A stretch of DNA of 64,000 nt from an uncultured Acidobacteriota bacterium (GTDB lineage: Bacteria; Acidobacteriota; Thermoanaerobaculia; Multivoradales; UBA5704). This document shows, one piece after another, positions 3,450 to 39,741 of the stretch. The translations under genes and the position numbers were made by a program. The notes under the pieces were generated by a model, which saw only the letters and a list, made by a program, of their open reading frames with translations, was not told the DNA's origin and made no database searches. Location: contig CAVYRF010000002.1 of the NCBI GenBank assembly GCA_963770895.1, positions 576,001 through 640,000 on the forward strand. Reading direction: 5' to 3'. Position 1 is the stretch's first letter. Every line of letters begins with the position of its first letter.

Positions 3450-3626
3450 CTAACAGTTCTTACAGCTCTTCGCCGTCGGGTTCTCGCAGGTGCAGCCGGT
3501 GATCGGGCAGGTGTTGACCACCGAACAGGCGGGAGTCAGCGCCCCGCCCCCCGCCACGCCGGCCAGCGAATCCAGCCGGTAGAGGGATTCGGCCATCAGC
3601 CGCAGCTTCTTCGTGCTCTTCTTCAT
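3450..3626 (-). CDS. RiPP-like precursor peptide 1 (58 aa, double-Gly leader, Cys/Ser/Thr-rich core)
   Basis: MKKSTKKLRLMAESLYRLDSLAGVAGG-GALTPACSVVNTCPITGCTCENPTAKSCKNC; AAAGGAG RBS; leader homologous to two other small ORFs in the window. Confidence 0.8.
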   Translation of the reverse strand: MKKSTKKLRLMAESLYRLDSLAGVAGGGALTPACSVVNTCPITGCTCENPTAKSCKNC

Positions 3627-3722
3627 CGCGTCTCCTTTGGGGTTGCACCGCGCTCGTAATGAGCAGTGCCGCCGCGCCCCAGAATCGGGCCGGCGACGCC
3701 GGATACGCCGGCCGCTGATCGG

Positions 3723-3751
3723 TTGACAAGCGGCTGAGCATCCGGCACCAT
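3723..3751 (+). promoter_or_regulatory. putative sigma70 promoter
   Basis: TTGACA (3723-3728), 17-bp spacer, CACCAT (weak -10). Confidence 0.4.
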
Positions 3752-3877
3752 AGCTACATCGCTCCGCGCGCTCTTTTCGAGAGCGACGCGGCGGCTCCAA
3801 AGAGGCTTGGGCGGCCCACGGAGCTGGGCGGGCTGGGACCTGCCAAATAGGAAGACGCCCAGAAAGGAGGTGGTCCA

Positions 3878-3922
3878 GTGGACTTAGATAAACCCGGTTT
3901 GGTGGAGGTGGCGTCCTCGTAA
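3878..3922 (+). CDS. 14-aa micro-ORF MDLDKPGLVEVASS
   Basis: GTG start immediately after a perfect AAGGAGGTG SD; TAA stop. Confidence 0.45.
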   Translation: MDLDKPGLVEVASS

Positions 3923-4022
3923 GGGGAGATCCTCCTAAGCCTGGCTCTCTGGTTCTGACCAGTGCTGCAGGTCGGCTCCCCTCCAAGCGGGGGGAACCCA
4001 ACGCCACTGAGACCAACCCCTC

Positions 4023-4050
4023 AAGGCCCCGGCTTCGGCCGGGGCCTTTT
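4023..4050 (+). terminator. rho-independent terminator
   Basis: AAGGCCCCGGC-TTCG-GCCGGGGCC-TTTT. Confidence 0.85.
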
Positions 4051-4230
4051 GTGTTTCTGCCCGCCTCGACGCGGAGCCTCTTGATGCCGCCGTTGCCTCG
4101 CGCGCCAGTCCTCCCCTGACTCGCCGCCCCGCCGCAGCCTGGCGCGGCAGATGCATCCCTGCGCCGACAGCGCCGGTTTCGCTGTACGCTGCAGCTGACG
4201 GGCGGTGGTCGACGGGAGGGAGGTTCGCGG

Positions 4231-7200
4231 ATGGGGATCTGGGATCAACTGTCACGCTGGCCGGTCATCCAGCAAATCGCCACGCGGGACCTCAAGGGGC
4301 TGGGCGCCACCGCCGCTTCGGCGCACAGCCGCGGCCTGGCGCCGCGCACGCAGGCGGCGGACCGGGTGGTGCCTTCGGTGTGCCCGTACTGCGCCGTGGG
4401 CTGCGGCCAGCTGGTGTTCGTCAAGGACGAAAAGATCACCGACATCGAAGGCGATCCCGATTCGCCGGTTTCGAACGGCTGCCTCTGTCCCAAGGGGTCG
4501 GCGACGTTCCAGCTGGTCACCGGCGCCCATCGCCTGCAGCAGGTGCTCTACCGCCGGCCGCACGGCACCGAATGGGAAGTGCTGCCGCTCGAAACGGCCA
4601 TGGACATGGTGGCCGAGCGCGTCAAGGCGACCCGCGACGCCACCTTCATGGAGGAGCACCCCGACGGCTTCCCGGTGCGCCACACCCTGGGCATCGCCCA
4701 CCTGGGCGGCGCCACCCTCGACAACGAAGAGAACTACCTGATCAAGAAGCTGTTCAACAACCTGGGGATCGTGCAGATCGAAAACCAGGCCCGGATATGA
4801 CATTCCGCCACGGTCCCCAGTTTGGGGACCTCCTTCGGTAGGGGCGGCGCCACCACCTTCCCGGGCGACCTGCAGAACTCCGACTGCATCGTCATCCAGG
4901 GATCCAACATGGCGGAATGCCACCCGGTGGCGTTCCGCTACGTCATGGAAGCGAAGCGGCGCGGCGCGACGATCATCCACGTCGACCCGCGCTTCACCCG
5001 CACCAGCGCGGTCGCGGACCTGCACGTGCCGATCCGCGCCGGCAGCGACATCGCCTTCCTGGGCGCGGTGGTCAACTACGTCTTCGAGCACGAGCGCTGG
5101 TTCCACGACTACGTGGTCGCCTACACCAACGCGCCCGTCCTGGTGTCGGAAGACTTCCGCGACACCGAGGACCTGGACGGCCTGTTCAGCGGCTGGGACG
5201 CCGAGGGCGCCCGCTACAATCCCAGATCCTGGCAGTACGACGGCACCGAGATGCATCCCGCCGGGGGCCATCGCGAGCTGACCGCCGGCGAGCTCCACTC
5301 GCGGCGCGCCGTCGAAAGCGAGTGCGCCTCGCCGCTGCCGCTCGACCCGACGCTGCAACATCCGCGCTGCGTCTTCCAGGTCCTGAAGCGCCACTTCGCC
5401 CGCTACACGCCCGAGATGGTGGACGCGGTGTGCGGCGTGCCGCGCCACCTGTTCCTGCGCGTCGCCGAAGCGCTGTGCGCCAGCTCGGGGCGCGACCGCA
5501 CCGCCGCCTTCTGCTACGCCGTCGGCTGGACGCAGCACTCGGTGGGCGTGCAGTACATCCGCACCGCGGCGATCATCCAGCTGCTGCTCGGCAACATGGG
5601 CCGCCCCGGCGGCGGCATCCTGGCGCTGCGCGGGCACGCTTCCATCCAGGGCTCGACCGACGTGCCGACGCTGTTCAACCTGCTGCCCGGCTACATGGCG
5701 ATGCCGCAGGCCGGCAAGGACCTGGACTTCGCCACCTACGTCAAGCGCAACACCCCCGCCGGCGGCTGGTGGTCCGAGTTCCCCAAGTACGCGGTGTCGC
5801 TGCTCAAGGCGTGGTACGGCGCCGAAGCGACCGCCGACAACGGCTGGGCCTACGATCACCTGCCCTTCGTCCACGGCGACCATTCGCACATGACGACCGT
5901 CACGGCGATGGCCGACGGGCTGGTCAAGGGCTACTTCCTGATGGGCGAAAACCCCACCGTCGGCTCGATGCACGGCGCCCTGCAGCGCGCCGGGATGCGC
6001 CAGCTGGACTGGCTGGTGGTGCGCGATTTCGCGCTCATCGAAAGCGCCGACTTCTGGCGCCAGGCGCCGGAGATCTCGCGCGGCGAGGTGCGGCCCGAAG
6101 ACATCAAGACCGAGGTGTTCTTCTTCCCCTGCGCCGCGCACACCGAAAAGGACGGCACCTTCACCAACACCCAGCGCCTGTTGCAGTGGCACCACAAGGC
6201 GGTCGAGCCGCCGGGCGATTGCCGCAGCGAGCTGCACTTCGCCTTCCACCTGGGGCGCCGCCTGCGCCAGCTGTACGCCGGATCGCAGGCGCGGCGCGAC
6301 CGGCCGCTGCTGGCGATGACCTGGGACTATCCGACCACGGGGCCGACCGCGGAGCCCAGCGCCGAGGCGGTGCTGGCCGAGATCAACGGCTACAGCATCG
6401 CGCCCGACGGCAGCCGCAAGCCGGTAGGCGGCTTCACCGAGCTCAAAGCCGACGGCTCGACCGCCTGCGGCTGCTGGATCTATGCCGGCTGCCGCAAGGA
6501 CGGCGTGAACCTGACGGCGCGCCGCAAGCCGGCCCGCGAACAGAACTGGGTGGCGCTGGAATGGGCGTGGGCGTGGCCCGCCAACCGCCGCATCCTGTAC
6601 AACCGAGCCTCCGCCGACCCGCAGGGGCGCCCCTGGTCCGAGCGCAAGCGCTGCGTGTGGTGGGACGCGGACGCCAAGCGATGGACGGGCGAAGACGTGC
6701 CCGACTTCATCGCCGACCGGCCGCCGTCCTACTGTCCGCCCGAGGGCGCCACCGGCCTGGCCACCATCGCCGGCGATGCGACCGTTCATGCTGCAAGGCG
6801 ACGGGCGCGGCTGGCTGTTCGCTCCCAACGGCCTGCTGGACGGGCCGCTGCCCGCCCATTACGAGCCCGAAGAGGCGCAGTTCCACAACCCGTTCTACGC
6901 CCAGCAGTGCAACCCCACTCGCCTGGAATGGCGGCGCCGCGACAACCCCTACCATCGCGCCTGGGACGATCCCCGCTATCCGCACGTGATGACCACCTAC
7001 CGGCTGACCGAGCACCACACCGCCGGCGCCATGAGCCGCTGGCTGTCGTGGCTGTCCGAGCTGCAGCCCGAAATGTTCTGCGAGGTGTCGCCGGAGCTGG
7101 CGCGCCAATACGGCCTGGTCAACGGCGGCTGGGCGACGCTGAGCACCGCGCGCGCCGAGATCGAGGCGCGGGTGCTGGTGACCCAGCGCATGCCGCCGCT

Positions 7201-7558
7201 GCGCCTGGGCAGGCGCGTCGTGCACCAGATCGGCGTGCCCTACCATTGGGGCAGCAAGGGGAGGGTGGTGGGCGACGCCGCCAACGAGCTGATCAGCTTC
7301 GTCGGCGACCCCAACGTCTCGATTCAGGAGTCCAAGGCGCTGACCTGCGCCATCCAGCCCGGCCGCCGCAGCCGCGGTCGGCGGGTGGTCACCAGCGGCC
7401 CCCTGGCGGCGGCACTGACGGCGACGCCGGCGCCGGAGTCCGTGGACGGCGAACCGGCGGGCGGCGCCTGGTCCCGCGACCAGCCGCCGGTTTCGGCGCG
7501 TCAGCCCGGCCCGCACGGCATGGTGGCATCGGCGGCACAGCGCAACGAGGAGAGCTGA
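4231..7558 (+). CDS. fdnG: formate dehydrogenase alpha subunit (Mo/W-bisPGD, selenocysteine at TGA 4798-4800), interrupted by a +1 frameshift near 6781
   Basis: CPYCAVGC...C Fe-S motif, NQARI-U-HSAT active site, GSNMAECHP, LRGHASIQG. The C-terminal domain (PFMLQGDG, TTYRLTEHH) is in the next frame; removing 1 nt gives a 1108-aa frame. Confidence 0.9.
4812..4830 (+). promoter_or_regulatory. bacterial SECIS element
   Basis: Hairpin GGTCCCC-AGTTT-GGGGACC starting 11 nt after the in-frame TGA at the Sec position. Confidence 0.8.
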
Positions 7559-7560
7559 GC

Positions 7561-8373
7561 ATGGCCAAGGGGTTCTTCACCGACACCACGCTGTGCATCG
7601 GCTGCAAGGCCTGCGAAGTGGCGTGCAAGCAGTGGAACCAGCTGCCGGACGACGGCCTGCAGTTCACCGCCATGTCGTACGACAACACCGCCGCCCTGGG
7701 AGCCTCCACCTGGCGGCACGTCTCGTTCATCGAACGGCCGGTGCCGCTGTCGGGACAGGAAACGGGGCTGGGCAATTTTTCCTGGCTGCTGATGTCCGAC
7801 GTGTGCAAGCACTGCCACCGCGCCGGCTGCCTGGAAGCCTGCCCCACCGGCGCCATCATCCGCACGGAATTCGACAGCGTCTACGTGCAGCCCGACATCT
7901 GCAACGGCTGCGGGTATTGCGTCGTCTCCTGCCCGTTCGGGGTCATCGACCGCCGCTCCGACGACGGCCGCGCCTGGAAGTGCACGCTGTGCTACGACCG
8001 GCTGCGCGGCGATCTGGAGCCCGCCTGCGCCAAGGCCTGCCCCACCGACTCGATCCTCTTCGGCGAGGTGGAAGAGCTCAAGGTGCACGCCATCGATCGC
8101 GTCCAGCGCCTGCACCGGCACGGCGTCGGCGAAGCCTGGCTGTACGGCGCCGACGAAGCCGGACAGCCCGGCACCGAAGGGCTGAACGCCTTCTTCCTGC
8201 TGCTCGACCGGCCCGAGGTGTACAACCTGCCGCCCAACCCGACGGCTCCCGCCAAGCGCGCCGCCGCCAGCTGGGGCGCCATGGGATTGGCCCTGGCCGG
8301 CCTGGCTGCCGCGGCGCTGGCCGCGGTGCTCTCGACCGCGGGCGACGATCGAGATCGGGACCGGTACGCATGA
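7561..8373 (+). CDS. fdnH: formate dehydrogenase beta (4Fe-4S) subunit
   Basis: DTTLCIGCKACEVAC, CKHC...C...CP, CNGCGYCVVSCP, KCTLC...PACAKACP; C-terminal TM helix; GAGGAG RBS. Confidence 0.9.
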   Translation: MAKGFFTDTTLCIGCKACEVACKQWNQLPDDGLQFTAMSYDNTAALGASTWRHVSFIERPVPLSGQETGLGNFSWLLMSDVCKHCHRAGCLEACPTGAIIRTEFDSVYVQPDICNGCGYCVVSCPFGVIDRRSDDGRAWKCTLCYDRLRGDLEPACAKACPTDSILFGEVEELKVHAIDRVQRLHRHGVGEAWLYGADEAGQPGTEGLNAFFLLLDRPEVYNLPPNPTAPAKRAAASWGAMGLALAGLAAAALAAVLSTAGDDRDRDRYA

Positions 8374-9530
8374 CCGGCAGCGGCGGCGACGGCCGTCACA
8401 TCGATCCGGCGCTGGGCACGCTCGGGGGCAGCGCGGGCGCGCAACAGCGCGTGGCGCCGGATCGCGACGACCCCGGCGGCCAGCACGGCCATGGCGGCAA
8501 CGCCGCCGCGCCGTCGTGGCTCCCCTGGGGCGAGCTGCCGTCCGACTCCTTTGCCGGCGAGCGGCCCACCTACTATGGGCGGCCGCTGCTCAAGGAAGCG
8601 GTCTGGATCTGGTCGATTCCGCTCTACTTCTACGTCGGCGGCACCGCCGGCGCCGCCGCGACGCTGGGCGCCGCGGCGCAGCTCGCCGGCGGCCCCGGCG
8701 CGCGGCCGCTGGTGCGGCGCTGCCGCTGGATCGCGGCGGCGGGGTGCGGTGCCAGCACGGTGCTGCTGATCCACGACCTGGGGCGCCCCGAGCGCTTTTT
8801 GAACATGCTGCGCGTGTTTCGCCCCACCTCGGCGATGAGCGTCGGCTCGTGGGTGCTGGCCGCCGCGGCTCCGGCAGCCATGGGATCGGCGGTGCTCTCC
8901 GGCTGCCGGCGCCCCTGGCTGCGCCGGCTGGGCGACGCGGCCGGCCTGGGCGCCGCGCTCTTCGGCATGCCCCTTGCCGGGTACACCAGCGTCCTGCTGG
9001 CTTCGACCGCGGTGCCGTTGTGGCAGGCGTCGCGCCGCAGCCTGCCGCCGCTGTTCATCGCCTCCGGCATGTCCGGCGCCGCGTCGCTGTTCGGCCTGAT
9101 GCCGCTGGCGCCGCGGGAAGAGCGCATCGTGCACCGCTTCGGCACCGCCGGCAAGATCGCGGACCTGGCCGCGATGGCGGCGGTCGAGCGCGACGCCGGG
9201 CGCGTCCCCCAGGTCGCCCGCCCCCTCCAGGAGGGCCTGTCGGGTACGCTGTGGAAGAGCGCCAAGGCGCTGACCGCCGCCAGCCTGGCGCTGTCGCTGC
9301 TCCCCCTGCCGCGCCGGCGCCGCCGCCTGACGCGCGCCCGCGACGTCGGCATCGGCCTGCTCGGCACCGCCGGCGCCGTCGCCCTGCGCTTCGCCGTCTT
9401 CCACGCCGGCAAGGCCTCGGCGCGCGACCCCCAGGCCACCTTCGACAACCAGCGCGCCGAGCTGCACGCGCAGCAACCGGCGTCCGCACCGCCGCCGGCG
9501 CCAGGCCCAGGCAGCAGCTCCAACCCCTGA
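8370..9530 (+). CDS. NrfD/PsrC-family membrane anchor subunit
   Basis: YYGRPLLK..VW.W.IP.Y, DLGRPERF.NML, TSAMSVGSW; multiple TM helices; ATGA overlap with fdnH. Confidence 0.82.
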   Translation: MTGSGGDGRHIDPALGTLGGSAGAQQRVAPDRDDPGGQHGHGGNAAAPSWLPWGELPSDSFAGERPTYYGRPLLKEAVWIWSIPLYFYVGGTAGAAATLGAAAQLAGGPGARPLVRRCRWIAAAGCGASTVLLIHDLGRPERFLNMLRVFRPTSAMSVGSWVLAAAAPAAMGSAVLSGCRRPWLRRLGDAAGLGAALFGMPLAGYTSVLLASTAVPLWQASRRSLPPLFIASGMSGAASLFGLMPLAPREERIVHRFGTAGKIADLAAMAAVERDAGRVPQVARPLQEGLSGTLWKSAKALTAASLALSLLPLPRRRRRLTRARDVGIGLLGTAGAVALRFAVFHAGKASARDPQATFDNQRAELHAQQPASAPPPAPGPGSSSNP

Positions 9531-9687
9531 TTCGGCGCTTCCCGGCGACGCGACAGCCTTGTTTGTTTCCCACAACCGGCCTTGCCCAGCCTGCCGCTTT
9601 TGCTTCGCGGAACCCGTCGAACCGCTTTGCCAGCCGGACCCGATCTGGCGCTGATCTTGCTTGTGCTTGCGCCCGCGGAGGACCTGC

Positions 9688-10614
9688 TTGCGGCGCTGGC
9701 GACAAATTTTCACCCGGACGATCCTGGCCTGGAACGATCATGACGCGACGACGCAGGGCGCCGCGCTGGCGTTCTACACCATCTTTTCGCTCGCGCCGCT
9801 GCTGATCCTGGTGGTGGCGCTGGCGGGGGCGGCGTTCGGCGCCGAAGCCGTGCGCGGCCAGATCGTGCTCGAGCTGCAGGAGCTGATGGGGCGCGACTCC
9901 GCCAGCTTCGTGCAGTCGATGCTGCGCACCGTCGCCAAGCCCACCGCCAACCGGCTGGCGGGCATCATCGGCATCGCCACCCTGGTCTTCGGCGCCTCGG
10001 GCGTCTTCGTGCAGCTGCAACAGTCGCTGAACCTGGTCTGGGACGTGGCACCGCGGCCCGGCGCCGTCTTCGCCACGCTGGTGCGCAAGCGCATGCTGTC
10101 GTTTGCCGTGGTGGTGGGGATCGGCTTCCTGCTGGTGGTGTCGCTCATCCTGTCCACACTCCTGGCGGCGCTCGGCGGCTACCTGGAAACGCGCTTCGCG
10201 CTGCCGGTCAGCTGGCTCCACATGTCCAACATCGCCCTGTCGTTCGTCGTCGTCACGCTGCTGTTCGGGCTCATCTACAAGCTGCTGCCCGACGTCGCGA
10301 TCGACTGGCGCGACGTGGTGGTGGGGTCGTTGGTGACCGCCGCCCTGTTCGAGATCGGCAAGAACCTGATCGGCATCTACCTGGGACGGTCCGGCGTCGG
10401 CTCGGCATACGGCGCCGCGGGGTCGCTCGTGGTGATCACCTCCTGGGTCTACTACTCGGCGCTGATCTTCCTCTTTGGCGCCGAGCTCACCCACGTGTAC
10501 TCGCTCGACCACCGCGCCCGCCATGGCGCTCCCGCCGCGCCGGTGGAGGCGGGAGCGACGACCCGTACGCCGGCTGCCGCCGGTGCCCCTGCCGTGGAGA
10601 CAACCGCGGATTGA
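9688..10614 (+). CDS. YihY/BrkB-family inner-membrane protein
   Basis: AALAFYTIFSLAP and YGAAGSLV..WVYYS..I.LFGAE motifs. TTG start after a GGAGG RBS is inferred. Confidence 0.85.
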   Translation: MRRWRQIFTRTILAWNDHDATTQGAALAFYTIFSLAPLLILVVALAGAAFGAEAVRGQIVLELQELMGRDSASFVQSMLRTVAKPTANRLAGIIGIATLVFGASGVFVQLQQSLNLVWDVAPRPGAVFATLVRKRMLSFAVVVGIGFLLVVSLILSTLLAALGGYLETRFALPVSWLHMSNIALSFVVVTLLFGLIYKLLPDVAIDWRDVVVGSLVTAALFEIGKNLIGIYLGRSGVGSAYGAAGSLVVITSWVYYSALIFLFGAELTHVYSLDHRARHGAPAAPVEAGATTRTPAAAGAPAVETTAD

Positions 10615-12431
10615 ACGGCGACGGCGCGTCCTTCTCGCAGCGGCGCCGCGCGCCGCGCCGCGCGGCGGCATGGCTGCTGTCCACCGGCCTGGCGGCGATC
10701 ACGGCGATCACGTTGAGCGCGGCGGCAGCGCCGCTCTACGCCGCCGAGTCGCTGCGCGTCGAAGTGGACGGGATCAAGGGCGACCTCAAGAAAAACGTCA
10801 TGGCCACCCTTTCGATCGAAGCCCAGCGCAAGGACAAGGACCTGGACGAATCGCAGATCGAACGCCTGCACGGCAAGGCGCCGGCGGAGATCTCGCAGGC
10901 GTTGCAGCCCTTCGGCTACTACCGCTCCCTGGTCGACGCGTCGCTCGGCCACGACGGCGCCACCTGGGTGGCGCGCTATAAGGTGGACCCCGGGCCGCAG
11001 CTCAAGATCAACGCCCTGGACGTGCAGGTGCTGGGCGCGGGAGCGAGCGACGCGCATTTCGAGCGCCTGGCGCGCGATTTCCCGCTGCACCAGGGCGACC
11101 CGGTTTTGCAGCTGCAGTACGAGTCGGGCAAGAAAGCCTTTGACGACTACGCCGCCGGTCACGGCTACCTGGACGGCAAGTTTGCGGTCAACCAGATCCG
11201 CATCGACCTGGCCGCCTACACCGCGGACGTCGTCGTCCATTACGACAGCGGCCCGCAGTACAAGTACGGTCCGGTGCGCTTCCACCAGAGCTTCCTGCGG
11301 CCGCGCCTGGTCGAAGGCTTCGTGCGCTTCAAGCAGGGCGAGCCGATCTCGGCGGCGCAGCTGCTCCAACTGCAGCAGGCGCTGGCCGACACCAACTATT
11401 TTCAGCGCGTCGAAGTGGTGCCGCAGCGCGCCGAGGCGCAGGGCCTGGAAGTGCCGATCGACGTCAACCTGACGCCGTCGCGGCCGGAGAAGTGGACCGC
11501 CGGCGCCGGCTACGGCACCGACACCGGACCGCGCGGCACCGTCGGCCTGGAGCTGCGCGACATCAACGAATACGGCCACCGCTTCACCTCCGAAGCCGAC
11601 GTGTCGGCGATCAACAAGAGCTTCCGCGCCGACTACCTGATCCCCGACGTCCGCACGCGCACCGACATGCTGGACTTCACCGTCGCCTACGCCGACCTCA
11701 CGCCGGCGACCAGCAAGAGCCTGAACCTGCTCGCCGGCCCCAGCTACAGCAGCCTGCTCGGCCGCTGGCACCAGGTGATCTCGCTCGACTACCAGCGGGA
11801 GAGCTACACCGTCGGCCCGCAGAGCGGCCTTTCCGACCTGGTCATCCCGCAGATCACCTGGTCGCGCGTGTTCGGCAACGACCGCCTCTATCCGACGCGC
11901 GGCGAAAGCTACAACTTCGTCGTCCGCGGCGGCGACAAGGCCCTGCTGTCCGACGACAACTTCGCGCAGGCCCAGGCCACCGCCAAGTTCATCCAGAGCT
12001 TCGGCCAAAAGAAAGTGTTTCGCCTGATCACCCGCGCCACCATCGGCTCGACCTGGACCAGCGACTTCAGCCACCTGCCGCCCAGCGAGCGCTTCTTTGC
12101 CGGCGGCGACCAGAGCGTGCGCGGCTACGGCTTCGAAGGCATCGGCGCCCTCGAAGACGGGCAGGTCATCGGCGGCACCGACCTGCTGGTGGGCAGCGTC
12201 GAGCTGCAATATCGCCTGGCGCGGTGGCAGGCGCTGCAAAAGTTCGGCGTCGCGACGTTTTTCGACGCCGGCGGCGCCGGCTTCTCCTTCGGCGGCGAGC
12301 TCAAGGAGGGCACCGGCCTGGGCATCTTCTGGATCTCGCCGATCGGCCCGGTGCGCGTCTACGTGGCGACCGCGCTCAGCATCCCAGGTCACCCGCTGCG
12401 CCTCCACCTCACCATAGGTCCAGATCTATGA
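10611..12431 (+). CDS. tamA: translocation and assembly module outer-membrane subunit TamA (Omp85 family)
   Basis: Signal peptide, POTRA-type region, GYGTDTG, FFAGGDQSVRGY, SPIGPV and terminal IGPDL. Confidence 0.9.
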   Translation: MNGDGASFSQRRRAPRRAAAWLLSTGLAAITAITLSAAAAPLYAAESLRVEVDGIKGDLKKNVMATLSIEAQRKDKDLDESQIERLHGKAPAEISQALQPFGYYRSLVDASLGHDGATWVARYKVDPGPQLKINALDVQVLGAGASDAHFERLARDFPLHQGDPVLQLQYESGKKAFDDYAAGHGYLDGKFAVNQIRIDLAAYTADVVVHYDSGPQYKYGPVRFHQSFLRPRLVEGFVRFKQGEPISAAQLLQLQQALADTNYFQRVEVVPQRAEAQGLEVPIDVNLTPSRPEKWTAGAGYGTDTGPRGTVGLELRDINEYGHRFTSEADVSAINKSFRADYLIPDVRTRTDMLDFTVAYADLTPATSKSLNLLAGPSYSSLLGRWHQVISLDYQRESYTVGPQSGLSDLVIPQITWSRVFGNDRLYPTRGESYNFVVRGGDKALLSDDNFAQAQATAKFIQSFGQKKVFRLITRATIGSTWTSDFSHLPPSERFFAGGDQSVRGYGFEGIGALEDGQVIGGTDLLVGSVELQYRLARWQALQKFGVATFFDAGGAGFSFGGELKEGTGLGIFWISPIGPVRVYVATALSIPGHPLRLHLTIGPDL

Positions 12432-29216: not shown

Positions 29217-29219
29217 AGA

Positions 29220-31802: not shown

Positions 31803-31878
31803 CGCTCCCCGCCGGAAGCCCGTAGGGCTAGCTACCAGCACCACGCCGGTGCAGCCGGGCCACCGCGCTGCCGTGAAG

Positions 31879-32085
31879 CTAGTGTCCCGAGTCAGAAGTT
31901 TCACACCATAATTCGGCGGCCGCCCACGCCCCTGGCGGCGTTGCGACCTGCCGGAAGTGCCGGGACAGGCGGCAGCCCCGGCCGCCGCCTCGACATAGTC
32001 TCGACTATGCCTGCGGCGGCGTGCCTGGCCAGGAGCGCGGATGACTCGCCGACTTATGCCGCGAATTTCTGACTCGGGACACTAG
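31879..32085. mobile_element. MITE/palindromic element A (207 bp)
   Basis: Perfect 19-bp terminal inverted repeat CTAGTGTCCCGAGTCAGAA / TTCTGACTCGGGACACTAG, extending imperfectly to ~40 bp; central hairpin; no transposase. Confidence 0.75.
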
Positions 32086-32105
32086 TAATGGCCTGTATCA
32101 GGCCA

Positions 32106-32253
32106 CTAGTACTACTGTGTCACGCCAGCAGAAAAAGCCTGCCAGCGTTGAATTCCACGAAATTTTCAGAAGTATTCAATTGAAATACGCAAAGTACTGA
32201 GACAGAACAACTTGCACGGCAGCCTGTGCGAGTTTGTGACACTGTAGTACTAG
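32106..32253. mobile_element. MITE-like element B (148 bp, AT-rich interior)
   Basis: 18-bp TIR with 1 mismatch, CTAGTACTACTGTGTCAC / GTGACACTGTAGTACTAG. Confidence 0.7.
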
Positions 32254-32365
32254 CCGCGCGCCGCCGCCAGCGCCGCCGGTAGCCGGTTGCGGCTGTTTGC
32301 CGCACCTCCCATGATGCGGGCGATTCCGAGTTACCATCTGGCAGCTTCCTCGGGACGGAACGACC

Positions 32366-35300
32366 ATGAGCGATCTGTTAAGGATCACCGACCGGTACCA
32401 GCTCGACAAGCTGGTGCATGCGAGCGACGCCGCCAGCGTCTTTCGCGCCGTCGACCTGCACTCGCGCCGCGTGGTGGCGCTCAAGCTGATGCGCCCGCCT
32501 GCCGGCCAGCCGGCCGGCGGTGGCGCGCCCGGCGAGCAGGCCCGTTTCGCCGACGCCTGCCGGGCCTTGCAGCAGTGCAACCATCCCAGCGTGCCGCCGC
32601 TGCTGGATTTTGGTTTTGCCGGCAGCGGCGAAGCCTTTCTTGCGGTCGAGTACCTGCTGGGCGCCACCTTCGATCTGCTGGCGGGGTCGCCCGCGACGCG
32701 CGTGCTGCCGCTGCTGCTGCCGGTGCTCGACGCGCTCGAGGAGCTGGACCGCCACGGCCTCGCTCATGGCAACCTGCGCGCCGACAACCTCCTGGTGGTG
32801 CCGCGCGGCGGCAGCGAGGAGGAAATCAAGCTTCTCGGCTGGGGCAGCGCCGTCGCCGGAACCGGCGACGAGGGGCGGCGCAACGACCTGCGCGCCTTCG
32901 CCGAGGTCGCCTGCACGGCGATCGCGGCGCGCGTCGAGCGCGGCCCTTCACCGGTCGTCAGCCTGCGCCCCGAAGACGAATCGCAGCTGGCCGACGCCTC
33001 CGAGCTGGCCATCCTGCTGTCGCTGCTGCTGCAGCCCGGCGGCGCGATGCCCGCCAGCCTCTCCTCGGAGCTCCGCCGGGCCTTCCGCCAGGCGCTCCAC
33101 GGCGACGCGGCAGGCGGCGCGCCGCTCGACCTGGACAGCGCCGTGCGCGCCGACATCACCATGGCCGTCCCCCGCGACCGGCTCCTCGCCGGCACCGCCC
33201 TACCGGCCGGCGCCGCCGCCGCTGCCGGATTAGCGGCCGGCGCCGGCGCCCAGGCAGCGGCTTCGCCAGCGGCACCCGAAGCGGCCGGCGTGCGTACCGA
33301 AACTCTTCCCAGCTTTCGACCCGAAGACCTGAGCTCCACCCGGCCCGGCATCGCGACCATCGCCGCGATCATTGCGGAAGACAAGCCCGCACCCGCACCC
33401 AGGGCGTCCCGCGCCGAGCGGCGCACCCCGCGGCGCGGCACCCCGTACATCGCGTCCGCGGCGCCCGCCGCTGCGGCCACGGCCGCGTCTCCGGCAGTCG
33501 ATGCCGGCGGTCCACCGGTGCCCGTCGCCGATGCGCGATCCACCGGACGCCACTCCGCGGCGGGCGGCGCGGCGCACCTGCCGGCCGAACCTGCCCTGCC
33601 GCCGCCTGAAGCAGAAGCGTGGATGTCTCCCCAACCGTCCTGGATGGTGACCCGGCTCGTGCCGCCCTCCGACGCCGCCGGCAAGCCGCAGACGGAAGCG
33701 CCGCCTGCCGCTGGCGCCGCGCCACGCGCCGACTCCGCCTCCGTCCTGCCGTTCCCCGCTCCACCAGCCCCACCGCAGGCCGCCGCCCAGGCGGCCGACG
33801 CGGCCCGCCCGCTCAGCCCGGCAGCCGCCGGCAACTCGGCAAGCGCCGGCAACTCGCCAGAGCCCTCCGCTCCAGGCAGCTACGACCCGGCTACGGCGGC
33901 AGGCACGGCCCGTACAGGAAGCCCGGCAGACGCTGGCAACCTGGCAGGCGCCGACAGCCAGGCCAATGTCGGCACCTTGCCACAGACCTCTGCCCTGGGC
34001 AGCTACGATCCGGCCGAGGCGGCAGGCGCGGCCCGTATGGGTAGCCCGGTCGCCTCTGGCAACCTGGCAGGCGCTGGCGGCCAGGCCAACATCGGCAACT
34101 TGCAAGAGCCCACTACCCTGGGCAGCTACGATCCGGCAACGGCGGCAGGCGCGGCCGGCGCGGGCAGGACCGCTGGGCTCGCTGTGCCGGGCGGCGGCAC
34201 CACTGCCGCTCCTGCGCGCACCGCGACGGGCTCGGCTGGTCTGGCAGCTCGCCAGATCACCGATCCGACAACCGCGCCAGCCGCGGCAGCCGCAGCGGCG
34301 GCGCTGTCGCAGGCGGAGCGCGATCAGCTTGACCGCGGCGCCGCCGCTCGGCAGCCGTCGCCCCCCCTGCCCCACCGTCAGCCGGTGCATCCACCCGCAG
34401 CGGAGCCCCAGCCATCGCCTGGTGCCATGCCGGCTCTTACGGCGGCGGCGGCGCAGACGGCGGGGCGGCCGAGCGCCCCGCGCGGGCGCCGGGGCGGACT
34501 GCGGGCCTGGATTGCCGGCGGCGCGATCGTGCTGTTGGCAGCGGCGCTTGCGGTTGTCGCGGCGATCGCCATGCACCAGCGCCGGCCGGAGACGTCGGCG
34601 GCGGTGGCACCGCCTGCGGCCCGCGGCGCGGGCACCACGGCGGTACACCCCGCTCCGGGGGCCCCGCCAGGACCGGCGGCTCCGGCCGCGCCGGGCGGCG
34701 CGCTCACCACCGCCGTCCCCGGCGCGAACCCCTCGGCACCGCCGGGGGTGGCGCCGCCGCCCGCGGACCCGCAGCTCGCCGCGGTCGAGGAGCGGCTGGC
34801 GGCCGGCGACCTGGCGGGCGCCCGCCGCGCTCTGACGCAGATCTCTCCCGCGCAGCAGGCGGCGTTCGGCGAAGCGGATCGCGCCACCTGGGCTCGTCTC
34901 AACGAGACGGTGGCAACCGACGTGCGCGGGCGCATCGCCGGCGACCTGGCCGCGGGCTTCTCTCGCGGCGACATGCGCCGGCTTGGCTCGGCGCTGGCGG
35001 CGGCAAAGCGGGAGCAGGGCCTGCCGGTCGTCTTGCGGCGCGACCTGGACCGCGCCCGCCAGGCGGTGGACCTGGACGCGCGGCTGCGCCAGCCCGATCC
35101 GCCCGAGGGACAGCCCGAAGCGCTGCGCGACGCGACCGACCTGCTCGCCCTGCTGCCGCGCTACGGCCGCGCCGCGGAGCTGCGGGAGGCGGCGGCGAAA
35201 AAGGTGGAGGAGCAGGCCGACGCGGCCGTCGCCGCCGGCGACTTCGACCGCGCCACCCAGCGGCTGGCCGCGCTACGCGACAAGTGGCCCGACCGCGCGG

Positions 35301-35863
35301 GTCTGCAGGACCGCGCCGACCGGCTGGAGGCGCAGCGGCGCGGCGACGAACGCCTGACCGCGGCGCTGGCGGCGGCCGAGCGGGCGGAGGCCGCGGGCCA
35401 GCCGCTGCAAGGGCTGGAAGCGCTCGCCGCGGCCAACCCCGGCGCCCGCTTCCGCGACCGCTTCCGGCAGGAGCGCGATCGCCTCAACCAGCTGCTCGCC
35501 AAGCTGGACGCCAACCCGCCGGTCGTCTCCCTGCGCGGCGGCGCCAAGCTGGAGTACGACAAAGGCAAGGGCATCGTCGTGCCGCTGCACGTCACCGACG
35601 ATTTCGCGGTCAAGACCGTCGAATGCTTCTTCCGCGCCGAAGGCGACCCCGCCTACCGGCAGATCGCCGTGCGCCACCTCGCCGGCGCCGACTACGAGGT
35701 CGCCATCCCCGCCGACGCCCACCAAAACCGCAACATCGAGATCTACGTCGCCGCCACCGACCCCTCCGGTCACCAGACCCTGCTCGGCACCCGCGACCAG
35801 CCGCTCAAGGTCAAGCGCCGCAACTGGCTCGAAAAGATCTTCGTCGGCAAGGAAGGCCAGTAG
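32366..35863 (+). CDS. membrane-anchored Hanks-type kinase-like protein (probable pseudokinase) with long disordered linker
   Basis: DRYQL..., VALKLM, HP.VP.LLDFG; catalytic loop HGNLRADN; GWG instead of DFG; TM helix near aa 715-740; helical plus beta-sandwich C-terminus. Confidence 0.75.
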   Translation: MSDLLRITDRYQLDKLVHASDAASVFRAVDLHSRRVVALKLMRPPAGQPAGGGAPGEQARFADACRALQQCNHPSVPPLLDFGFAGSGEAFLAVEYLLGATFDLLAGSPATRVLPLLLPVLDALEELDRHGLAHGNLRADNLLVVPRGGSEEEIKLLGWGSAVAGTGDEGRRNDLRAFAEVACTAIAARVERGPSPVVSLRPEDESQLADASELAILLSLLLQPGGAMPASLSSELRRAFRQALHGDAAGGAPLDLDSAVRADITMAVPRDRLLAGTALPAGAAAAAGLAAGAGAQAAASPAAPEAAGVRTETLPSFRPEDLSSTRPGIATIAAIIAEDKPAPAPRASRAERRTPRRGTPYIASAAPAAAATAASPAVDAGGPPVPVADARSTGRHSAAGGAAHLPAEPALPPPEAEAWMSPQPSWMVTRLVPPSDAAGKPQTEAPPAAGAAPRADSASVLPFPAPPAPPQAAAQAADAARPLSPAAAGNSASAGNSPEPSAPGSYDPATAAGTARTGSPADAGNLAGADSQANVGTLPQTSALGSYDPAEAAGAARMGSPVASGNLAGAGGQANIGNLQEPTTLGSYDPATAAGAAGAGRTAGLAVPGGGTTAAPARTATGSAGLAARQITDPTTAPAAAAAAAALSQAERDQLDRGAAARQPSPPLPHRQPVHPPAAEPQPSPGAMPALTAAAAQTAGRPSAPRGRRGGLRAWIAGGAIVLLAAALAVVAAIAMHQRRPETSAAVAPPAARGAGTTAVHPAPGAPPGPAAPAAPGGALTTAVPGANPSAPPGVAPPPADPQLAAVEERLAAGDLAGARRALTQISPAQQAAFGEADRATWARLNETVATDVRGRIAGDLAAGFSRGDMRRLGSALAAAKREQGLPVVLRRDLDRARQAVDLDARLRQPDPPEGQPEALRDATDLLALLPRYGRAAELREAAAKKVEEQADAAVAAGDFDRATQRLAALRDKWPDRAGLQDRADRLEAQRRGDERLTAALAAAERAEAAGQPLQGLEALAAANPGARFRDRFRQERDRLNQLLAKLDANPPVVSLRGGAKLEYDKGKGIVVPLHVTDDFAVKTVECFFRAEGDPAYRQIAVRHLAGADYEVAIPADAHQNRNIEIYVAATDPSGHQTLLGTRDQPLKVKRRNWLEKIFVGKEGQ
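33830..34160 (+). repeat. 123-bp (41-aa) coding tandem repeat, ~2.7 copies
   Basis: GGCAGCTACGA(C/T)CCGG recurs at 33875, 33998 and 34121 (GSYDP). Confidence 0.85.
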
Positions 35864-35989
35864 CCAGGTCCACGCTCACGAACAGGTCGCACCGCCGCCA
35901 TGCTGGTCGTGGTGTCGCGGCGCGGTTGACTCTTCTCCCCGCACTCGTTGAGGTATAGCCCGCCAGAGCGGGAGGAGGAGAGCAAGCCC

Positions 35990-36178
35990 ATGAAAAAGAG
36001 GGGGAAGGTCCTGCTGCATCGCGAGACGCTGCGCAACCTGTCCAACAGCACGATCTCCAGGGTCGTCGGCGGCGCCCTCAACTCGAAGGTAGCGCCCAGC
36101 ATTTGCGGGTCGGCCTGCCTCACCGACTGCTACGGCACCGTCTGCTCCATCGGCACCGGCTGCGGAGGCACCGAGTAG
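35990..36178 (+). CDS. RiPP-like precursor peptide 2 (62 aa)
   Basis: MKKRGKVLLHRETLRNLSNSTISRVVGG-ALNSKVAPSICGSACLTDCYGTVCSIGTGCGGTE; GGAGGAGG RBS. Confidence 0.8.
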   Translation: MKKRGKVLLHRETLRNLSNSTISRVVGGALNSKVAPSICGSACLTDCYGTVCSIGTGCGGTE

Positions 36179-36389
36179 CCTTCGTCGAGCAGCCCGTGGT
36201 GGAGCTGCGCATCACCGCGGTCGAGGCGGCACCGTTTTTCGATGAAGTCCCGCATCGCCTGCGGCGCGGCGCCTGGCAGTCCGACCCTCCGGTGCTCGCA
36301 ACCGCCGCAACGGCCTTGCGCCACTGGCGCCACGGCGGAAGTTGACTTGCAGGGGGGCTTTTGGGTTAGGATGCGGGTCCTTTGGCGGC

Positions 36390-36464
36390 GGGAGGTTAGC
36401 TCAGCGGTAGAGCACCTGCCTTACACGCAGGGGGTCGCGGGTTCGAATCCCCCACCTCCCACCA
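36390..36464 (+). tRNA. tRNA-Val(TAC)
   Basis: Acceptor GGGAGGT/ACCTCCC, anticodon loop CTTACAC, TTCGAAT, encoded CCA. Confidence 0.93.
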
Positions 36465-36495
36465 AAAGTGGGGGGCAAACGCCGATCATTTTTGC

Positions 36496-36572
36496 GGGGT
36501 CGTAGTTCAGCTGGTTAGAATGCCGGCCTGTCACGCCGGAGGTCGCGGGTTCGAGTCCCGTCGGCCCCGCCA
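36496..36572 (+). tRNA. tRNA-Asp(GTC)
   Basis: Acceptor GGGGTCG/CGGCCCC, loop CTGTCAC, G discriminator, CCA. Confidence 0.95.
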
Positions 36573-36608
36573 TTCACCCGTCGCGGGCACCAAGAAGGAA
36601 GGTCGACG

Positions 36609-36764
36609 ATGCGCGAAAAGATCAAGCTGGTTTCGTCCGAAGGCACCGGCTACTTCTATACCACCACCAAGAACAAGAAGCTGTCGACCGAAAAGCTGCG
36701 CATGAAGAAGTACGACCCCAAGGTGCGCAAGCACGTCGAGTTCGTCGAAGAGAAGCTCCGCTAG
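36609..36764 (+). CDS. rpmG: 50S ribosomal protein L33 (zinc-free type)
   Basis: [51 protein letters not shown]. Below the ORF-track cutoff; translated by hand. Confidence 0.95.
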
Positions 36765-37245
36765 GGGCTCCCGACTCAGACATTCGCGGCCTACGCCGGC
36801 GCGTCCGCGCTCTTCGCCAGGCACGCCGACCCGTCAAGCCGCAGCACCACCCCGGTTCCGCTTCTTCGGCACCGGCTCCCCGTCCGGCCGCTTCCCGCCC
36901 GCTTCAAGTGCCAGTCCAGCCATGGCGCCGGGCGTGGCGTTCCGCCCCGTTCCGATCCCTGGCATCGCCTGTGACGCCGCGGCGACTTTGGTACCTGCCG
37001 CCGGTCTTTCGTGCCACAATCAAACGCCGTGCCGGCTCCCCGGAGCGGCGCCGCCGCATCTAACGCCGGTCTGCAGAACGATGCGGTGGCGCGTGCCCGC
37101 GCGCCGGCAGGTTGGCGAAGCAGCAGCCGTCGTGGCAGTCGGCGCCGGGTGTGCCGGCCGGCGGCTTGCGCGCCGTTCCCGACGCAGCGCTGGTCGCGGC
37201 GGGGATCGCCGGCTCAATCAACGGACATCATCAAGGGAGGTCGCG

Positions 37246-37857
37246 ATGTTTCAGGTACCCGCTCTGCCCTATTCATTCGAAGCACTGGAGCCCCATATCG
37301 ACGCGCGCACCATGGAGATCCACCACGACAAGCATCACGCCGCGTACGTCACCAACCTCAACAAGGCGCTGGAACCCCACCAGGATCTGCAGCACAAGTC
37401 GGTCGAAGACCTGCTGCGCGGCATCCACGACCTGCCCGAATCGATCCGCACCGCGGTGCGCAACCATGGCGGCGGCCACGCCAACCACAGTCTCTTCTGG
37501 CAGATCATGGGGCCCGGCGGCGGCGGCACGCCGAGCGGCGACCTGGCCGCGGCGATCGACCGTGACCTCGGTGGCTTTGACACCTTCAAAGAGAAGCTGA
37601 CCAACGCCGCCGCAGCACAGTTCGGGTCCGGCTGGGGCTGGCTCGCGCTGTCAGACGGCAAGCTCGAGGTCATCGCCCGCCCCAACCAGGACAGCCCGCT
37701 GATGGAGGGCAAACACCCCATCCTGGGAGTCGACGTGTGGGAGCACGCCTACTACCTGCTGTATCAAAACCGCCGCCCGGACTACCTGAAGGCCTGGTGG
37801 AACACCATCGACTGGCAGAAGGCGGGAGCCGTCTACACCCAGGCTCACAACGCCTGA
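37246..37857 (+). CDS. sodA: Mn/Fe superoxide dismutase (Mn-type signature)
   Basis: [36 protein letters not shown]; GGGAGG RBS. Confidence 0.95.
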
Positions 37858-38208
37858 AGCTGTTGAAAACAGAGGTCCCGGCGCAGGACAGCCGGAGACC
37901 GGATCCGCGGCGCCTGGACCTGTGAAGACAAGGCACAGGCGCCTGAGTGCCCCGCACTAGCGGGCGGCCGCCACGCAGACCGCAGCACCTGAACCTGTTG
38001 CAGCCAAGTCCTCGCGGCGCAACAGAGGGCGGCCGTCCGTCAGCACCGCAGGACCTGAACCCGTGGCAAAATAGGGCCCCGGAGTAGGGGGGACGGCCGT
38101 CGTGCTGCCACGACAACACCTTTGCCCGTTGAAGATGGGCGCATTGACGCAGCAGCGAGAGGCGTCCGCAGCCGGCGCCACAATGCCTGAACCCCTTGAA
38201 AACAGGGC
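37845..38208. repeat. degenerate intergenic array, 6 copies of a ~25-bp motif with ~60-75-bp period
   Basis: CCTGAA.C.GTTG.A-like motif at 37853, 37913, 37988, 38054, 38119 and 38186. Confidence 0.6.
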
Positions 38209-38444
38209 TTCGGCAGCCCTGGGACCCTATTCCCCCCTCGCTGACCACTCTTGCGTCTCTAAATTTTGTTTATAGAGAAGTTTGCACCTGTCTGCTCATT
38301 TAGTGGGCGGTCACCCCTCGCAACATGGGCGCCATTTCAAGTTTATGCCAAGGTTCCTCTCCTTACAATTGCGAACGTGAAGAGCGGCTACTGAAGCGAG
38401 AAACGGGGCCTTCAGCCATCCGCCTTCCGGGGGGAGGAACCAAA

Positions 38445-38771
38445 ATGGCCAACATCGACCGTGTGACCCAGGACTTCCGGAGAGAAGAGCGGCACCTCAC
38501 CAAGGTGTTCAAGGCTCTCTCGGACGGCACTCGCCAAGAGATCCTGCGCCTGCTGGAAGGCCAGCAGCGCACCGTGGGCGAGATCGTCGGCAACTTCAAT
38601 CTCTCGCAGCCCACCATCTCTCGCCACCTGTCCGTGCTCAAAGAGGCAGACCTGGTGGTCGATCAGCGCCAGGGCCAGAACGTCATCTACCGCCTCAACG
38701 ACGACGCCCTGTCGACGTCGATGCAAGAGTTCTTCGGCCAGTTCCGCAGCTGCCAGGGCGTCATGCGGTAG
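38445..38771 (+). CDS. ArsR/SmtB-family transcriptional regulator
   Basis: FKALSD.TR..IL, SQPTISRHL.VLK.A.LV, R.G....Y; GGAGG RBS. Confidence 0.9.
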   Translation: MANIDRVTQDFRREERHLTKVFKALSDGTRQEILRLLEGQQRTVGEIVGNFNLSQPTISRHLSVLKEADLVVDQRQGQNVIYRLNDDALSTSMQEFFGQFRSCQGVMR

Positions 38772-38791
38772 GACCGCGGCCAGGCGGCAAC

Positions 38792-39103
38792 CAGTGCCCG
38801 CGACCAGCCGGCGCGCCCCGGCTGCCATCGGACACTCGCTGCCGCCGTCGCCGCCAGCCCGTCCAAGCCGGCGGCAGTGCCCGCGACCAGCCGGCGCGCC
38901 CCGGCTGCCATCGGACACTCGCTGCCGCCGTCGCCGCCAGCCCGTCCAAGCCGGCGGCAGTGCCCGCAACCGGCCGGCGCGCCCCGCCTGCCATCGGGCA
39001 CTTGCTGCCGCCGCCATCACCAGCTCGCCGCCGGCCCGTCCAAGCCGGAGGCAGTGTCCGTAACCAGCCGGCGCGTTCCGGCTGTCATCGGGCACTTGCC
39101 GTC
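38792..39103. repeat. 83-bp intergenic tandem repeat, ~3.6 copies
   Basis: Units start at 38792, 38875, 38958 and 39052. The first two are identical, the third has an 11-bp insertion and the fourth is partial. Confidence 0.9.
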
Positions 39104-39585
39104 GACACACCCGAGTTGGCGGCACGGCGGCGCAGCCAGTCGCTTGCACCGCGCGGCGCCGTCAAGGCCTGACACCTGAGCACCGCTTTCAGCCGTCCAT
39201 CCGGCCGGCGCCGGCCGCACTCACGGCGATCGCTCACGTCTAATTTTCGGCAAGACGGCGCCGCTCGCCCCCCGGCCCGATCGCGACGCGCCGCAGGCGC
39301 GCCGCGGTCGGGGCAACCCCGGGGGGGCACAACCGCGGCACACCCCGCCCAGAATCGATGCGCGCCTACGTGATCTCGAGCAGCGCCACGCTCTTGCTCC
39401 TGGCGATCACCAGCGCCGCCCGATCGCCAACCCAGCATGAGCTGCGGCCAGGCCGACGCCCAACCAAGGCCACGATTCCGGCGCACTGAAAGGGCCGGTG
39501 CGCACAGATGCTATTGAGCAGCCTGCCGCGCGGCGTACTGCGCGGCCACCGTTCAACAGCTACGCCAGCAAGAGGAGCCACCCCG

Positions 39586-39741
39586 ATGAAGAAGCAAGCC
39601 AGAAACCTGACCCTCTGCCGCGAGACCCTGCATCACCTGGTCACCCTGGAGCCGCTGCGAGACGCATTGGGAGGCGTCTCGGGACCGCGTACCTGCACCC
39701 TGTTCAACACCTGCACCAACTGCAACTACTGCACGATCTGA
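39586..39741 (+). CDS. RiPP-like precursor peptide 3 (51 aa)
   Basis: MKKQARNLTLCRETLHHLVTLEPLRDALGG-VSGPRTCTLFNTCTNCNYCTI; AAGAGGAG RBS. Confidence 0.8.
   Translation: MKKQARNLTLCRETLHHLVTLEPLRDALGGVSGPRTCTLFNTCTNCNYCTI

Follow-up and report, generated by a model that had tools for sequence, protein, structure and literature searches.

How could short, cysteine-rich peptides be modified when their genes stand singly between housekeeping genes and no modifying enzyme is encoded nearby? This question is raised by three unlinked open reading frames (ORFs) in a 64-kb stretch of DNA from an uncultured Acidobacteriota bacterium. The stretch, hereafter the window, is C2:576001-640000 of the source genome (G000; 8.16 Mb, three contigs, 71% guanine plus cytosine, GC). 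A preliminary description, made from the window alone, had read the ORFs as orphan precursors of ribosomally made, post-translationally modified peptides, with a shared leader and hypervariable cores, that are matured in trans. Our analysis indicates that the three ORFs are probably class I lanthipeptide precursor genes with a double-glycine leader of the L1a type, that about 93 such genes, scattered over the genome, make up their family, and that their products would be matured in trans by a distant LanB/LanC pair. We put the probability of this reading, as judged from sequence comparisons, at roughly 0.7.

The coordinates and strands of the three ORFs were confirmed, as were the strong ribosome binding sites claimed for them: each starts with an ATG 6-10 nt past a GGAG-type site. 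In window positions, the genes and their sites are:

3450..3626, minus strand: precursor 1, 58 amino acids (aa); leader ends in GG; core with 6 Cys and 7 Ser/Thr, last residue Cys; E-value of 1e-07 against the family hidden Markov model (HMM) described below

3632..3637, minus strand: ribosome binding site AAGGAG of precursor 1, 5 nt 5′ of the ATG

35990..36178, plus strand: precursor 2, 62 aa; core with 5 Cys and 8 Ser/Thr; match to NF038153 with E-value 0.015 and 15.4 bits against a cut-off of 22

about 35971..35980, plus strand: ribosome binding site GGAGGAGGAG of precursor 2, upstream of the ATG

39586..39741, plus strand: precursor 3, 51 aa; core with 4 Cys and 6 Ser/Thr; E-value of 3e-10 against the family HMM

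39570..39577, plus strand: ribosome binding site AAGAGGAG of precursor 3, upstream of the ATG

The three leaders align as described earlier, and the same Cys and Ser/Thr counts after the GG were obtained from our translations. Each gene is set among housekeeping genes, the window neighbors including an aldehyde dehydrogenase, a molybdopterin oxidoreductase, ribosomal protein L33, an Fe/Mn superoxide dismutase, an ArsR regulator, FtsH and tRNA-Val/Asp/Met. The statement that no maturase lies in the 64 kb holds for the families searched, with 0 matches in the window to LanC, either LanB domain, the LanM dehydratase domain, peptidase C39, YcaO and SPASM (generic radical SAM, PF04055, was not searched for). 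Genome-wide match counts are 14 for PF05147, 2 each for PF04738, PF14028 and PF13575, 9 for PF03412, 1 for PF02624 and 5 for TIGR04085, none of them within the window. The label “orphan” is thus apt at the scale of the window and fails for the genome, in which a LanB and nine stand-alone LanC(-like) genes exist.

The preliminary description had also reasoned that three copies in one window imply many more in the genome, and that finding neither further leader homologues nor a maturase would count against it. We searched all stop-to-stop frames of at least 30 codons in G000 with an HMM of the three window leaders, iterated four times; at E ≤ 0.001 the successive rounds collected 26, 72, 82 and 85 frames. 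The last HMM matched 94 frames at E ≤ 0.01; 93 of these are intact with a start codon at the expected place and are the family members treated here (one per ~88 kb). With the same HMM, reversed frames gave a best E-value of 0.31, and a separate profile search from a 43-member alignment returned 96 matches in G000. Many more copies are thus present, and so are candidate maturases.

The members are 42 to 75 residues long (median 54); ATG is the start codon in 86 of the 93, and a GGAG-like site usually precedes the gene. The family's 5158 codons have GC fractions of 0.54, 0.54 and 0.84 at positions 1, 2 and 3, the coding signature expected for G000. The leaders share the motif K-L-x-L-x-R-E-T-L-R-x-L and end in GG in 51 members. 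The cores have medians of 26 residues, 4 Cys and 6 Ser plus Thr, and are composed of 15.7% Cys, 14.8% Thr and 8.2% Ser. Ser plus Thr equals or exceeds Cys in all 93 cores, two cores are without Cys, and 40 are Cys-terminal. As read from the translations, this composition fits thioether chemistry. Mean pairwise identity is 0.39 among leaders (0.19 when shuffled) and 0.22 among cores (0.20 when shuffled), with identity of 50% or more in only 4 of 4278 core pairs. Conservation of the leaders while the cores differ suggests selection on leader recognition rather than decay.

Among NCBIfam families the top match was NF038153, the class I lanthipeptide leader L1a, which was found for 26 of 43 members at E ≤ 1 (best E-value 5.9e-4). 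The radical-SAM-target leader TIGR04149 gave a weak match in 4 of the 43 at E ≤ 1, with precursor 2 at 12.1 bits against a cut-off of 25, and no Nif11/NHLP leader match was found in the window peptides or the 43 members. The three window peptides had no Pfam match, including none at E ≤ 10 to the class II bacteriocin double-glycine leader PF10439; one homologue matched this family at E 0.16. In a large protein collection there were 376 homologues at E ≤ 0.001, most of them unnamed or “hypothetical.” Two carry the NCBI name “class I lanthipeptide [Thermoanaerobaculia bacterium],” and PF28317 is listed as a precomputed domain for two. The top family and the two NCBI names agree with the class I lanthipeptide-like leader that had been proposed. 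By profile score, the family resembles NF038153 yet sits mostly under the NF038153 threshold.

LanB/LanC, SPASM and C39 genes, which the preliminary description had suggested locating, were sought genome-wide. G000 has a single full-length LanB (C2:5180050-5183583, minus strand; 1177 aa; PF04738 550 bits, PF14028 236 bits) and, convergent with it, a LanC (C2:5178405-5180015; 112 bits) with readable zinc-site motifs WCYGD and CHG. This pair is ringed by RNase II, chorismate synthase, an M14 peptidase and a carbamoyltransferase. The family member nearest to LanB is 16 kb away, and the window genes are 4.5 Mb away. The genome also encodes eight more stand-alone LanC(-like) genes, two LanM, two kinase-LanC fusion genes, one LanB-N-only protein and one LanB-C-only protein, together with 5 SPASM matches and 9 matches to PF03412 (peptidase C39), 3 of them strong. 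Among the LanC proteins, seven share 31-70% identity with one another. For 6 of the 9 stand-alone LanC(-like) genes, at five loci, a family member lies within 300 bp or in the same operon; at one member per ~88 kb, the chance estimate is ~2% per gene. The LanC-linked members are:

C2:3323047-3265: member that precedes a LanC-LanC tandem

C1:1568272-8463: member within 300 bp of a LanC(-like) gene or in the same operon

C1:1579906-80058: member within 300 bp of a LanC(-like) gene or in the same operon

C2:2709152-9301: member within 300 bp of a LanC(-like) gene or in the same operon

C1:1011293-1451: member within 300 bp of a LanC(-like) gene or in the same operon

The family and LanB were then compared across 41 genomes, G000 and its relatives. 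The best 150 candidates per genome were scored, and copy numbers outside G000 are lower bounds. The family is present in 25 of the 41: it occurs in all 9 congeners (at least 1 to at least 69 copies), in 20 of 24 other genomes of the same taxonomic family and in 5 of 16 from other families of the order. All 25 family-positive genomes have a LanB match, at E < 1e-100 in 22 of them. Among the 16 family-negative genomes a strong LanB was found in one (G029), and G011 has a LanB at 2e-75. As in G000, LanB and LanC are within 4 kb of each other on one contig in at least 7 of the 9 congeners.

These counts bear on a different explanation, that the members are disulfide-rich or metal-binding secreted peptides (bacteriocin-like or signaling) with double-glycine leaders, cleaved and exported by a C39 ATP-binding cassette (ABC) transporter without dehydration or thioethers, and that LanB co-occurs with them through shared leader ancestry. 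Such peptides could have the GG leader end seen in 51 members and could use the C39 peptidases, and they would account for the ~87 of 93 members with no modifying enzyme nearby. They would, however, need neither the Ser and Thr that equal or outnumber Cys in every core nor the enrichment of Thr, which is like that of Cys. LanB also tracks the family (25 of 25 genomes, versus strong LanB in 1 of 16), members stand beside 6 of 9 LanC genes, and the window peptides do not match PF10439. We consider this explanation unlikely.

Maturation by LanB and LanC gains from genomes in which precursor and enzymes are neighbors. In genomes from three other families of the order, precursors that share the leader form operons with both enzymes, ordered precursor-LanC-LanB in G030 and G027 and LanB-precursor-precursor-LanC-LanC in G025; the operon LanBs are 47-50% identical to the G000 LanB over at least 95% of its length. 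A precursor with this leader lies within 8 kb of 32 of 80 public-genome LanB loci, including loci from Holophagales, Archangium, Cystobacter, Kofleriaceae and Acidobacteriaceae. For the 27 Thermoanaerobaculia/Thermoanaerobaculaceae LanB loci, many of which are short contigs, the precursor was found in 10 and is directly adjacent in 5. The closest public LanB loci are from soil-metagenome Thermoanaerobaculia (Acidobacteriota), the lineage to which G000 belongs.

In a phylum sample of 251 genomes, with the best 26 candidates scored in each, 13 had a family match, G182 among them. Large sets occurred in this sample only in G000, G018 and G025 (at least 26 each) and in a separate genus represented by G150 (at least 16) and G252 (at least 24). 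G150 and G252 belong to another family of the same phylum and have genomes of 3.5-3.8 Mb, dispersed members with a related leader and one LanB each. One closed-contig genome on this side has at least 16 dispersed precursors, and 5 of 5 positive genomes tested from the side of this second lineage have one strong LanB each. The G150/G252 sets look like an independent expansion.

Could the family instead be matured in trans by an enzyme of another class? The candidates are the two class II LanM, the two kinase-LanC fusions, which are class III/IV-like, and a radical SAM/SPASM enzyme of the kind known for TIGR04149 peptides. One member is 3.5 kb from a LanM, three are ~13 kb from a kinase-LanC fusion gene, one has a SPASM gene close by, and TIGR04149 weakly matches 4 of 43 members. 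However, each LanM adjoins its own precursor with an unrelated leader (C2:4307447-4307653 and C2:276212-276460), so the family is not the cognate LanM substrate, and G000 runs at least two separate lanthipeptide leader systems. Moreover, G010, G018, G019 and G022 have at least 28-47 members and LanC matches listed only in open frames of ~420-840 aa, none LanM-sized, whereas G034 and G036 show the reverse, with LanM-type matches and no family members; LanM is not needed by the family. As for SPASM enzymes, only 5 matches exist in the genome and 1 of 93 members is within 3 kb of one, no recurring maturase or radical SAM partner was found among neighbors within 4 kb of members, and the TIGR04149 score of 12.1 bits is far under its cut-off. 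Maturation by one of these other classes is, in our view, very unlikely. The LanM-linked precursor leaders are themselves of an A-W-[RK]-D type with a P-A-x-P-A motif.

A structural prediction bears on the proposed pairing of the family with LanB. When LanB residues 1-800 were modeled in complex with precursor 3, the score was 0.57 (runs 0.66, 0.56 and 0.57), and the best of three controls scored 0.00; contact agreement in the runs was at least 44% and partner pLDDT (predicted local distance difference test) at least 44. In calibration, 58 of 80 solved complexes and 2 of 110 mismatched pairs attained the mark, but at scores of 0.60 or less only 7 of those 80 solved complexes did so, as against both mismatches. 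The model weakly backs the pairing, and its pass may be a reflection of solved LanB-leader complexes.

The LanC paralogues of G000 are diverse. Two of them (C1:1580170-1581435 and C2:2707653-2709035; 70% identical to each other) are without the usual zinc ligands, with WAYAD for WCYGD and GFGP or GYGP for CHG. Each is followed by a member with a Cys-free core (C1:1579906-1580058 and C2:2709152-2709301, respectively), and a third leader like those of the Cys-free members is at C2:5020187-5020345. These zinc-less LanC and Cys-free peptide pairs may represent a different chemistry. A further stand-alone LanC-like gene (C1:1567036-1568262) is divergent, has C-C-G where LanC has C-H-G, and starts directly past the stop codon of a family member. 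A CCG motif is described for ProcM-type cyclase domains in the accessible text of a review (PMC12328550). We rejected this gene as a general promiscuous cyclase, as only 5 of the 41 genomes, G000 among them, have a clear orthologue (E < 1e-80), and several large-family genomes have none. Given the many C-terminal Cys, a LanD-type flavoprotein was also looked for; there are 3 PF02441 matches, one of them 1.3 kb from a member, which may instead be housekeeping CoaBC.

Several observations weigh against maturation of the whole family by LanB and LanC. About 87 of the 93 members have no lanthipeptide enzyme alongside, so that their link to the enzymes comes from leader homology and co-occurrence only, and co-occurrence overstates the support because related genomes are not independent samples. 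In addition, the LanB match is weaker in two family-positive genomes with fragmented assemblies, G005 (1.9e-67) and G020 (two adjacent pieces, 7.8e-84 and 3.7e-76). G024 has at least 27 members and a LanB orthologue only as pieces in several frames (best E 5.2e-30; C3:1392860-1394854), which could be a pseudogene or an assembly error. In G029 a strong LanB occurs with no member detected, and the congener G002 has LanB and only 1 member among the candidates scored, located 2 kb from its LanC-LanB pair. The NF038153 matches are all under the curated cut-off of 22 bits wherever scores are visible; the best among the window peptides is that of precursor 2, and precursors 1 and 3 have no match. Two to three members are Cys-free or beside a zinc-less LanC, so not every member is a standard lanthipeptide, and a SPASM radical-SAM gene is 2.3 kb from one member.

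If LanB and LanC do serve the scattered genes, how did the genes come to be where they are? The intergenic segments that hold the window precursors are (window positions, no strand):

3398..3718: segment around precursor 1, 321 bp

35854..36366: segment around precursor 2, 513 bp; ends 24 bp before tRNA-Val

38768..40158: segment around precursor 3, 1391 bp; besides the precursor it contains an 83-bp tandem repeat and a dispersed repeat of ~90 bp; stops 18 bp short of tRNA-Met

The syntenic gap in congeners measures 42 bp (G003) and 75 bp (G008) for the first segment, 51 bp (G003) and 60 bp (G001) for the second, and 198 bp (G003), 218 bp (G001), 259 bp (G002) and 87 bp (G009) for the third. 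The flanking genes have 72-88% identity to those of the congeners. DNA comparison of the three segments with other member loci returned only short leader-coding matches and no shared cassette. As the precursor DNA is missing at the syntenic sites and no cassette is shared, we conclude that the genes are gained or lost one at a time. Within the genus, copy number is 1 in G002, 18-69 in other congeners (lower bounds) and 96 in G000, a spread of about 100-fold.

Such turnover could also mean that only the LanC-adjacent members work and that the scattered copies are for the most part young, transient duplicates or relics in decay, silent or unprocessed. The absence of all three window genes from the congeners' syntenic sites, a copy number that varies within one genus between 1 and at least 69-96, and the lack of any common promoter motif among those searched for are consistent with this. 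On the other hand, 93 of 94 HMM matches are intact with a start codon, strong ribosome binding sites are usual and GC at the third codon position is 0.84. Leaders are kept while cores diverge, which suggests selection on leader recognition, and 20 of 24 genomes of the taxonomic family, as well as the second lineage, again have large families. It is therefore improbable that most of the scattered copies are relics.

Two vehicles for the dispersal were considered and rejected. Insertion targeted to tRNAs was suggested by two window genes that lie just upstream of tRNA genes, but it is not the rule: in the whole genome no other member comes within 600 bp of one of the 69 tRNAs (3 member-tRNA pairs versus ~1.1 expected). 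The dispersed repeat beside precursor 3 (window 39240-39330) is GC-rich, ~75-90 bp long and present in 46 copies in G000; 3 of the 46 are within 500 bp of a member versus 0.65 expected, a proximity that is not convincing because both features are intergenic. The search for shared regulation was similarly uninformative. Sigma-54 promoters, tried since sigma-54 activators recur nearby, had a loose match upstream of only 4 of 93 members. The best 6-mers enriched upstream of members, relative to 1088 other gene starts, occur in only 7-12 of 93, a rough comparison as the background includes operon-internal sequence, and promoter and terminator consensus scans at the three window loci revealed nothing informative.

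From the enzyme families involved, we infer how the peptides would be made. The conserved leader (KLxLxRETLRxL and a spacer mostly ending in GG) would be bound by the only full-length LanB (C2:5180050-5183583), which would glutamylate Ser and Thr of the core and eliminate glutamate to leave dehydroamino acids. The LanB-adjacent LanC, other zinc-site LanC paralogues or both would then add core Cys to these residues and form thioether rings. Finally, the leader would be cut at the GG/AG site and the peptide exported, perhaps via a C39-peptidase ABC transporter. In this way one enzyme set would yield dozens of distinct polycyclic peptides, a library specific to the species.

Two layers of this system differ in stability: the maturase pair is stable among housekeeping genes, and the precursors are short, separately translated and come and go between species. 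That maturase pair and precursors have come apart in a class I lanthipeptide system is the best-supported reading of these sequence comparisons; from them we also infer maturation in trans, with the scattered peptides expressed, dehydrated and cyclized. More broadly, the chances seem about even that Thermoanaerobaculia and an independent second acidobacterial lineage both use a class I form of the prochlorosin strategy. In it, one tRNA-dependent LanB and a few LanC paralogues (some zinc-less and beside Cys-free peptides) would serve ~30-100 mini-genes per genome, inserted singly in intergenic DNA and replaced so fast that congeners share few of them.

When examining the genomic context of the members we noted several further features. 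Groups recurring within 4 kb of members include 13 sigma-54 activator or histidine-kinase ORFs, 10 MacB/FtsX duplicated permeases, 6 ABC transporters, 6 nonribosomal peptide synthetases (NRPS), 5 Vgb-lyase family proteins, 5 HTH-TPR proteins and 3 M16 peptidases; these are raw counts with no genome-wide baseline. There are six very large ORFs within 4 kb of members, and the one that we scanned (C1:1818527-1830367) is an NRPS with condensation, AMP-binding and PP-binding domains. Around the precursor-LanC-LanC operon (C2:3312000-3332000) few ORFs have third-position GC of at least 0.82, a filter that most G000 genes pass, and the region may be foreign or recently acquired DNA.

Within the window, the 83-bp tandem repeat (38792-39099) lies between the ArsR gene and precursor 3; Tandem Repeats Finder reported 2.7 copies with 96% match at 38792-39013, and blastn stretches the repeat to 39099. 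A 1165-aa ORF (32366-35863, plus strand) with long Ala/Pro-rich low-complexity stretches ends 127 bp 5′ of precursor 2; it has no Pfam match at E ≤ 1e-4, and its N-terminus looks kinase-like by eye. Contigs from four DNA runs (two studies) match pieces of precursors 2 and 3 with 0-2 differences, which indicates presence only, and the best run may be the source sample; two joints with sides of 21 nt were disregarded. No RNA dataset was listed as carrying window 34000-41000.

Several known systems resemble parts of this one. Gram-negative class I lanthipeptides with double-glycine leaders (pinensin, Ped15.1/15.2, the thalassomonasins, and viridisins VdsA1-3 with VdsCB) share the separate LanB and LanC, the Lys-rich GG leader, the Cys/Ser/Thr-rich cores and the use of several precursors per leader. 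In the accessible text of the source, stand-alone LanB/LanC VdsCB modifies the double-glycine-leader precursors VdsA1/A2 in Gram-negative bacteria (PMC9680876). In those systems, however, 1-3 precursors are beside LanB/LanC, whereas the ~93 of G000 are scattered singly, with none within 16 kb of the LanB-LanC pair. The clustered layout, with the precursor beside LanB/LanC, is absent at the window genes and occurs at 5 LanC loci of G000 and in the G025, G027 and G030 operons.

The prochlorosins and synechococsins (ProcM and SyncM of marine picocyanobacteria) are alike in having one enzyme set, dozens of remote precursors, a conserved leader and hypervariable cores. They differ in that the enzyme is a single bifunctional LanM rather than a tRNA-dependent LanB with a separate LanC, and in that their leaders are of the Nif11/NHLP type, none of which was matched in the G000 family. 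Also, their hosts are marine cyanobacteria, whereas the G000 family belongs to soil Acidobacteriota whose own LanMs have separate precursors. The accessible text of a 2025 review gives 29 prochlorosins and 79 precursors for SyncM, and names SyncM as the most substrate-flexible enzyme reported (PMC12328550).

The tha/the clusters, with the class II synthetase ThaM and the GMC oxidoreductase ThaO, come from the same class, Thermoanaerobaculia, and share an N-terminal leader and a Cys-rich core (PMC13083261). As far as the available text of that source describes them, they are clustered, class II and form a thiazole at a Gly-Cys motif; the comparison with the G000 family is by description rather than by leader sequence (Nature 2026, PMC13083261). 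The TIGR04149 peptides (GG_sam_targ_CFB), which are modified by radical SAM enzymes in Bacteroidota, share a Lys-rich K-L-x-L-x-K-E-T leader ending in GG, but the G000 family matches their profile weakly and has no recurring radical SAM neighbor.

The literature search, which most subscription journals lay outside, turned up neither a dispersed class I family nor any account of this family in Acidobacteriota. Likewise, no report of a one-enzyme, many-peptide library for class I enzymes, for Acidobacteriota or for soil was found in the literature searched. What appears to be new is the organization of class I lanthipeptides in the manner of the prochlorosins, and the trans-maturation interpretation of the preliminary description is supported computationally.

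If this is true, no larger natural set of substrates would be known for a lanthipeptide enzyme, none would have been known before for a LanB/LanC pair, and the system would amount to a class I toolkit with natural promiscuity. LanB/LanC pairs would then be as substrate-tolerant as ProcM, and enzyme engineers would have a candidate promiscuous class I system. Mining tools that search only near LanB/LanC would miss most precursors in these genomes; that neighborhood-limited mining misses remote precursors is a limitation stated by Walker et al. in the accessible part of their paper (PMC7268733). An evolutionary question would follow, namely how genes of ~200 bp are gained singly in intergenic DNA. 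For the organisms themselves, the inference, if it holds, would mean that an abundant uncultured soil lineage makes a large and fast-changing repertoire of polycyclic peptides.

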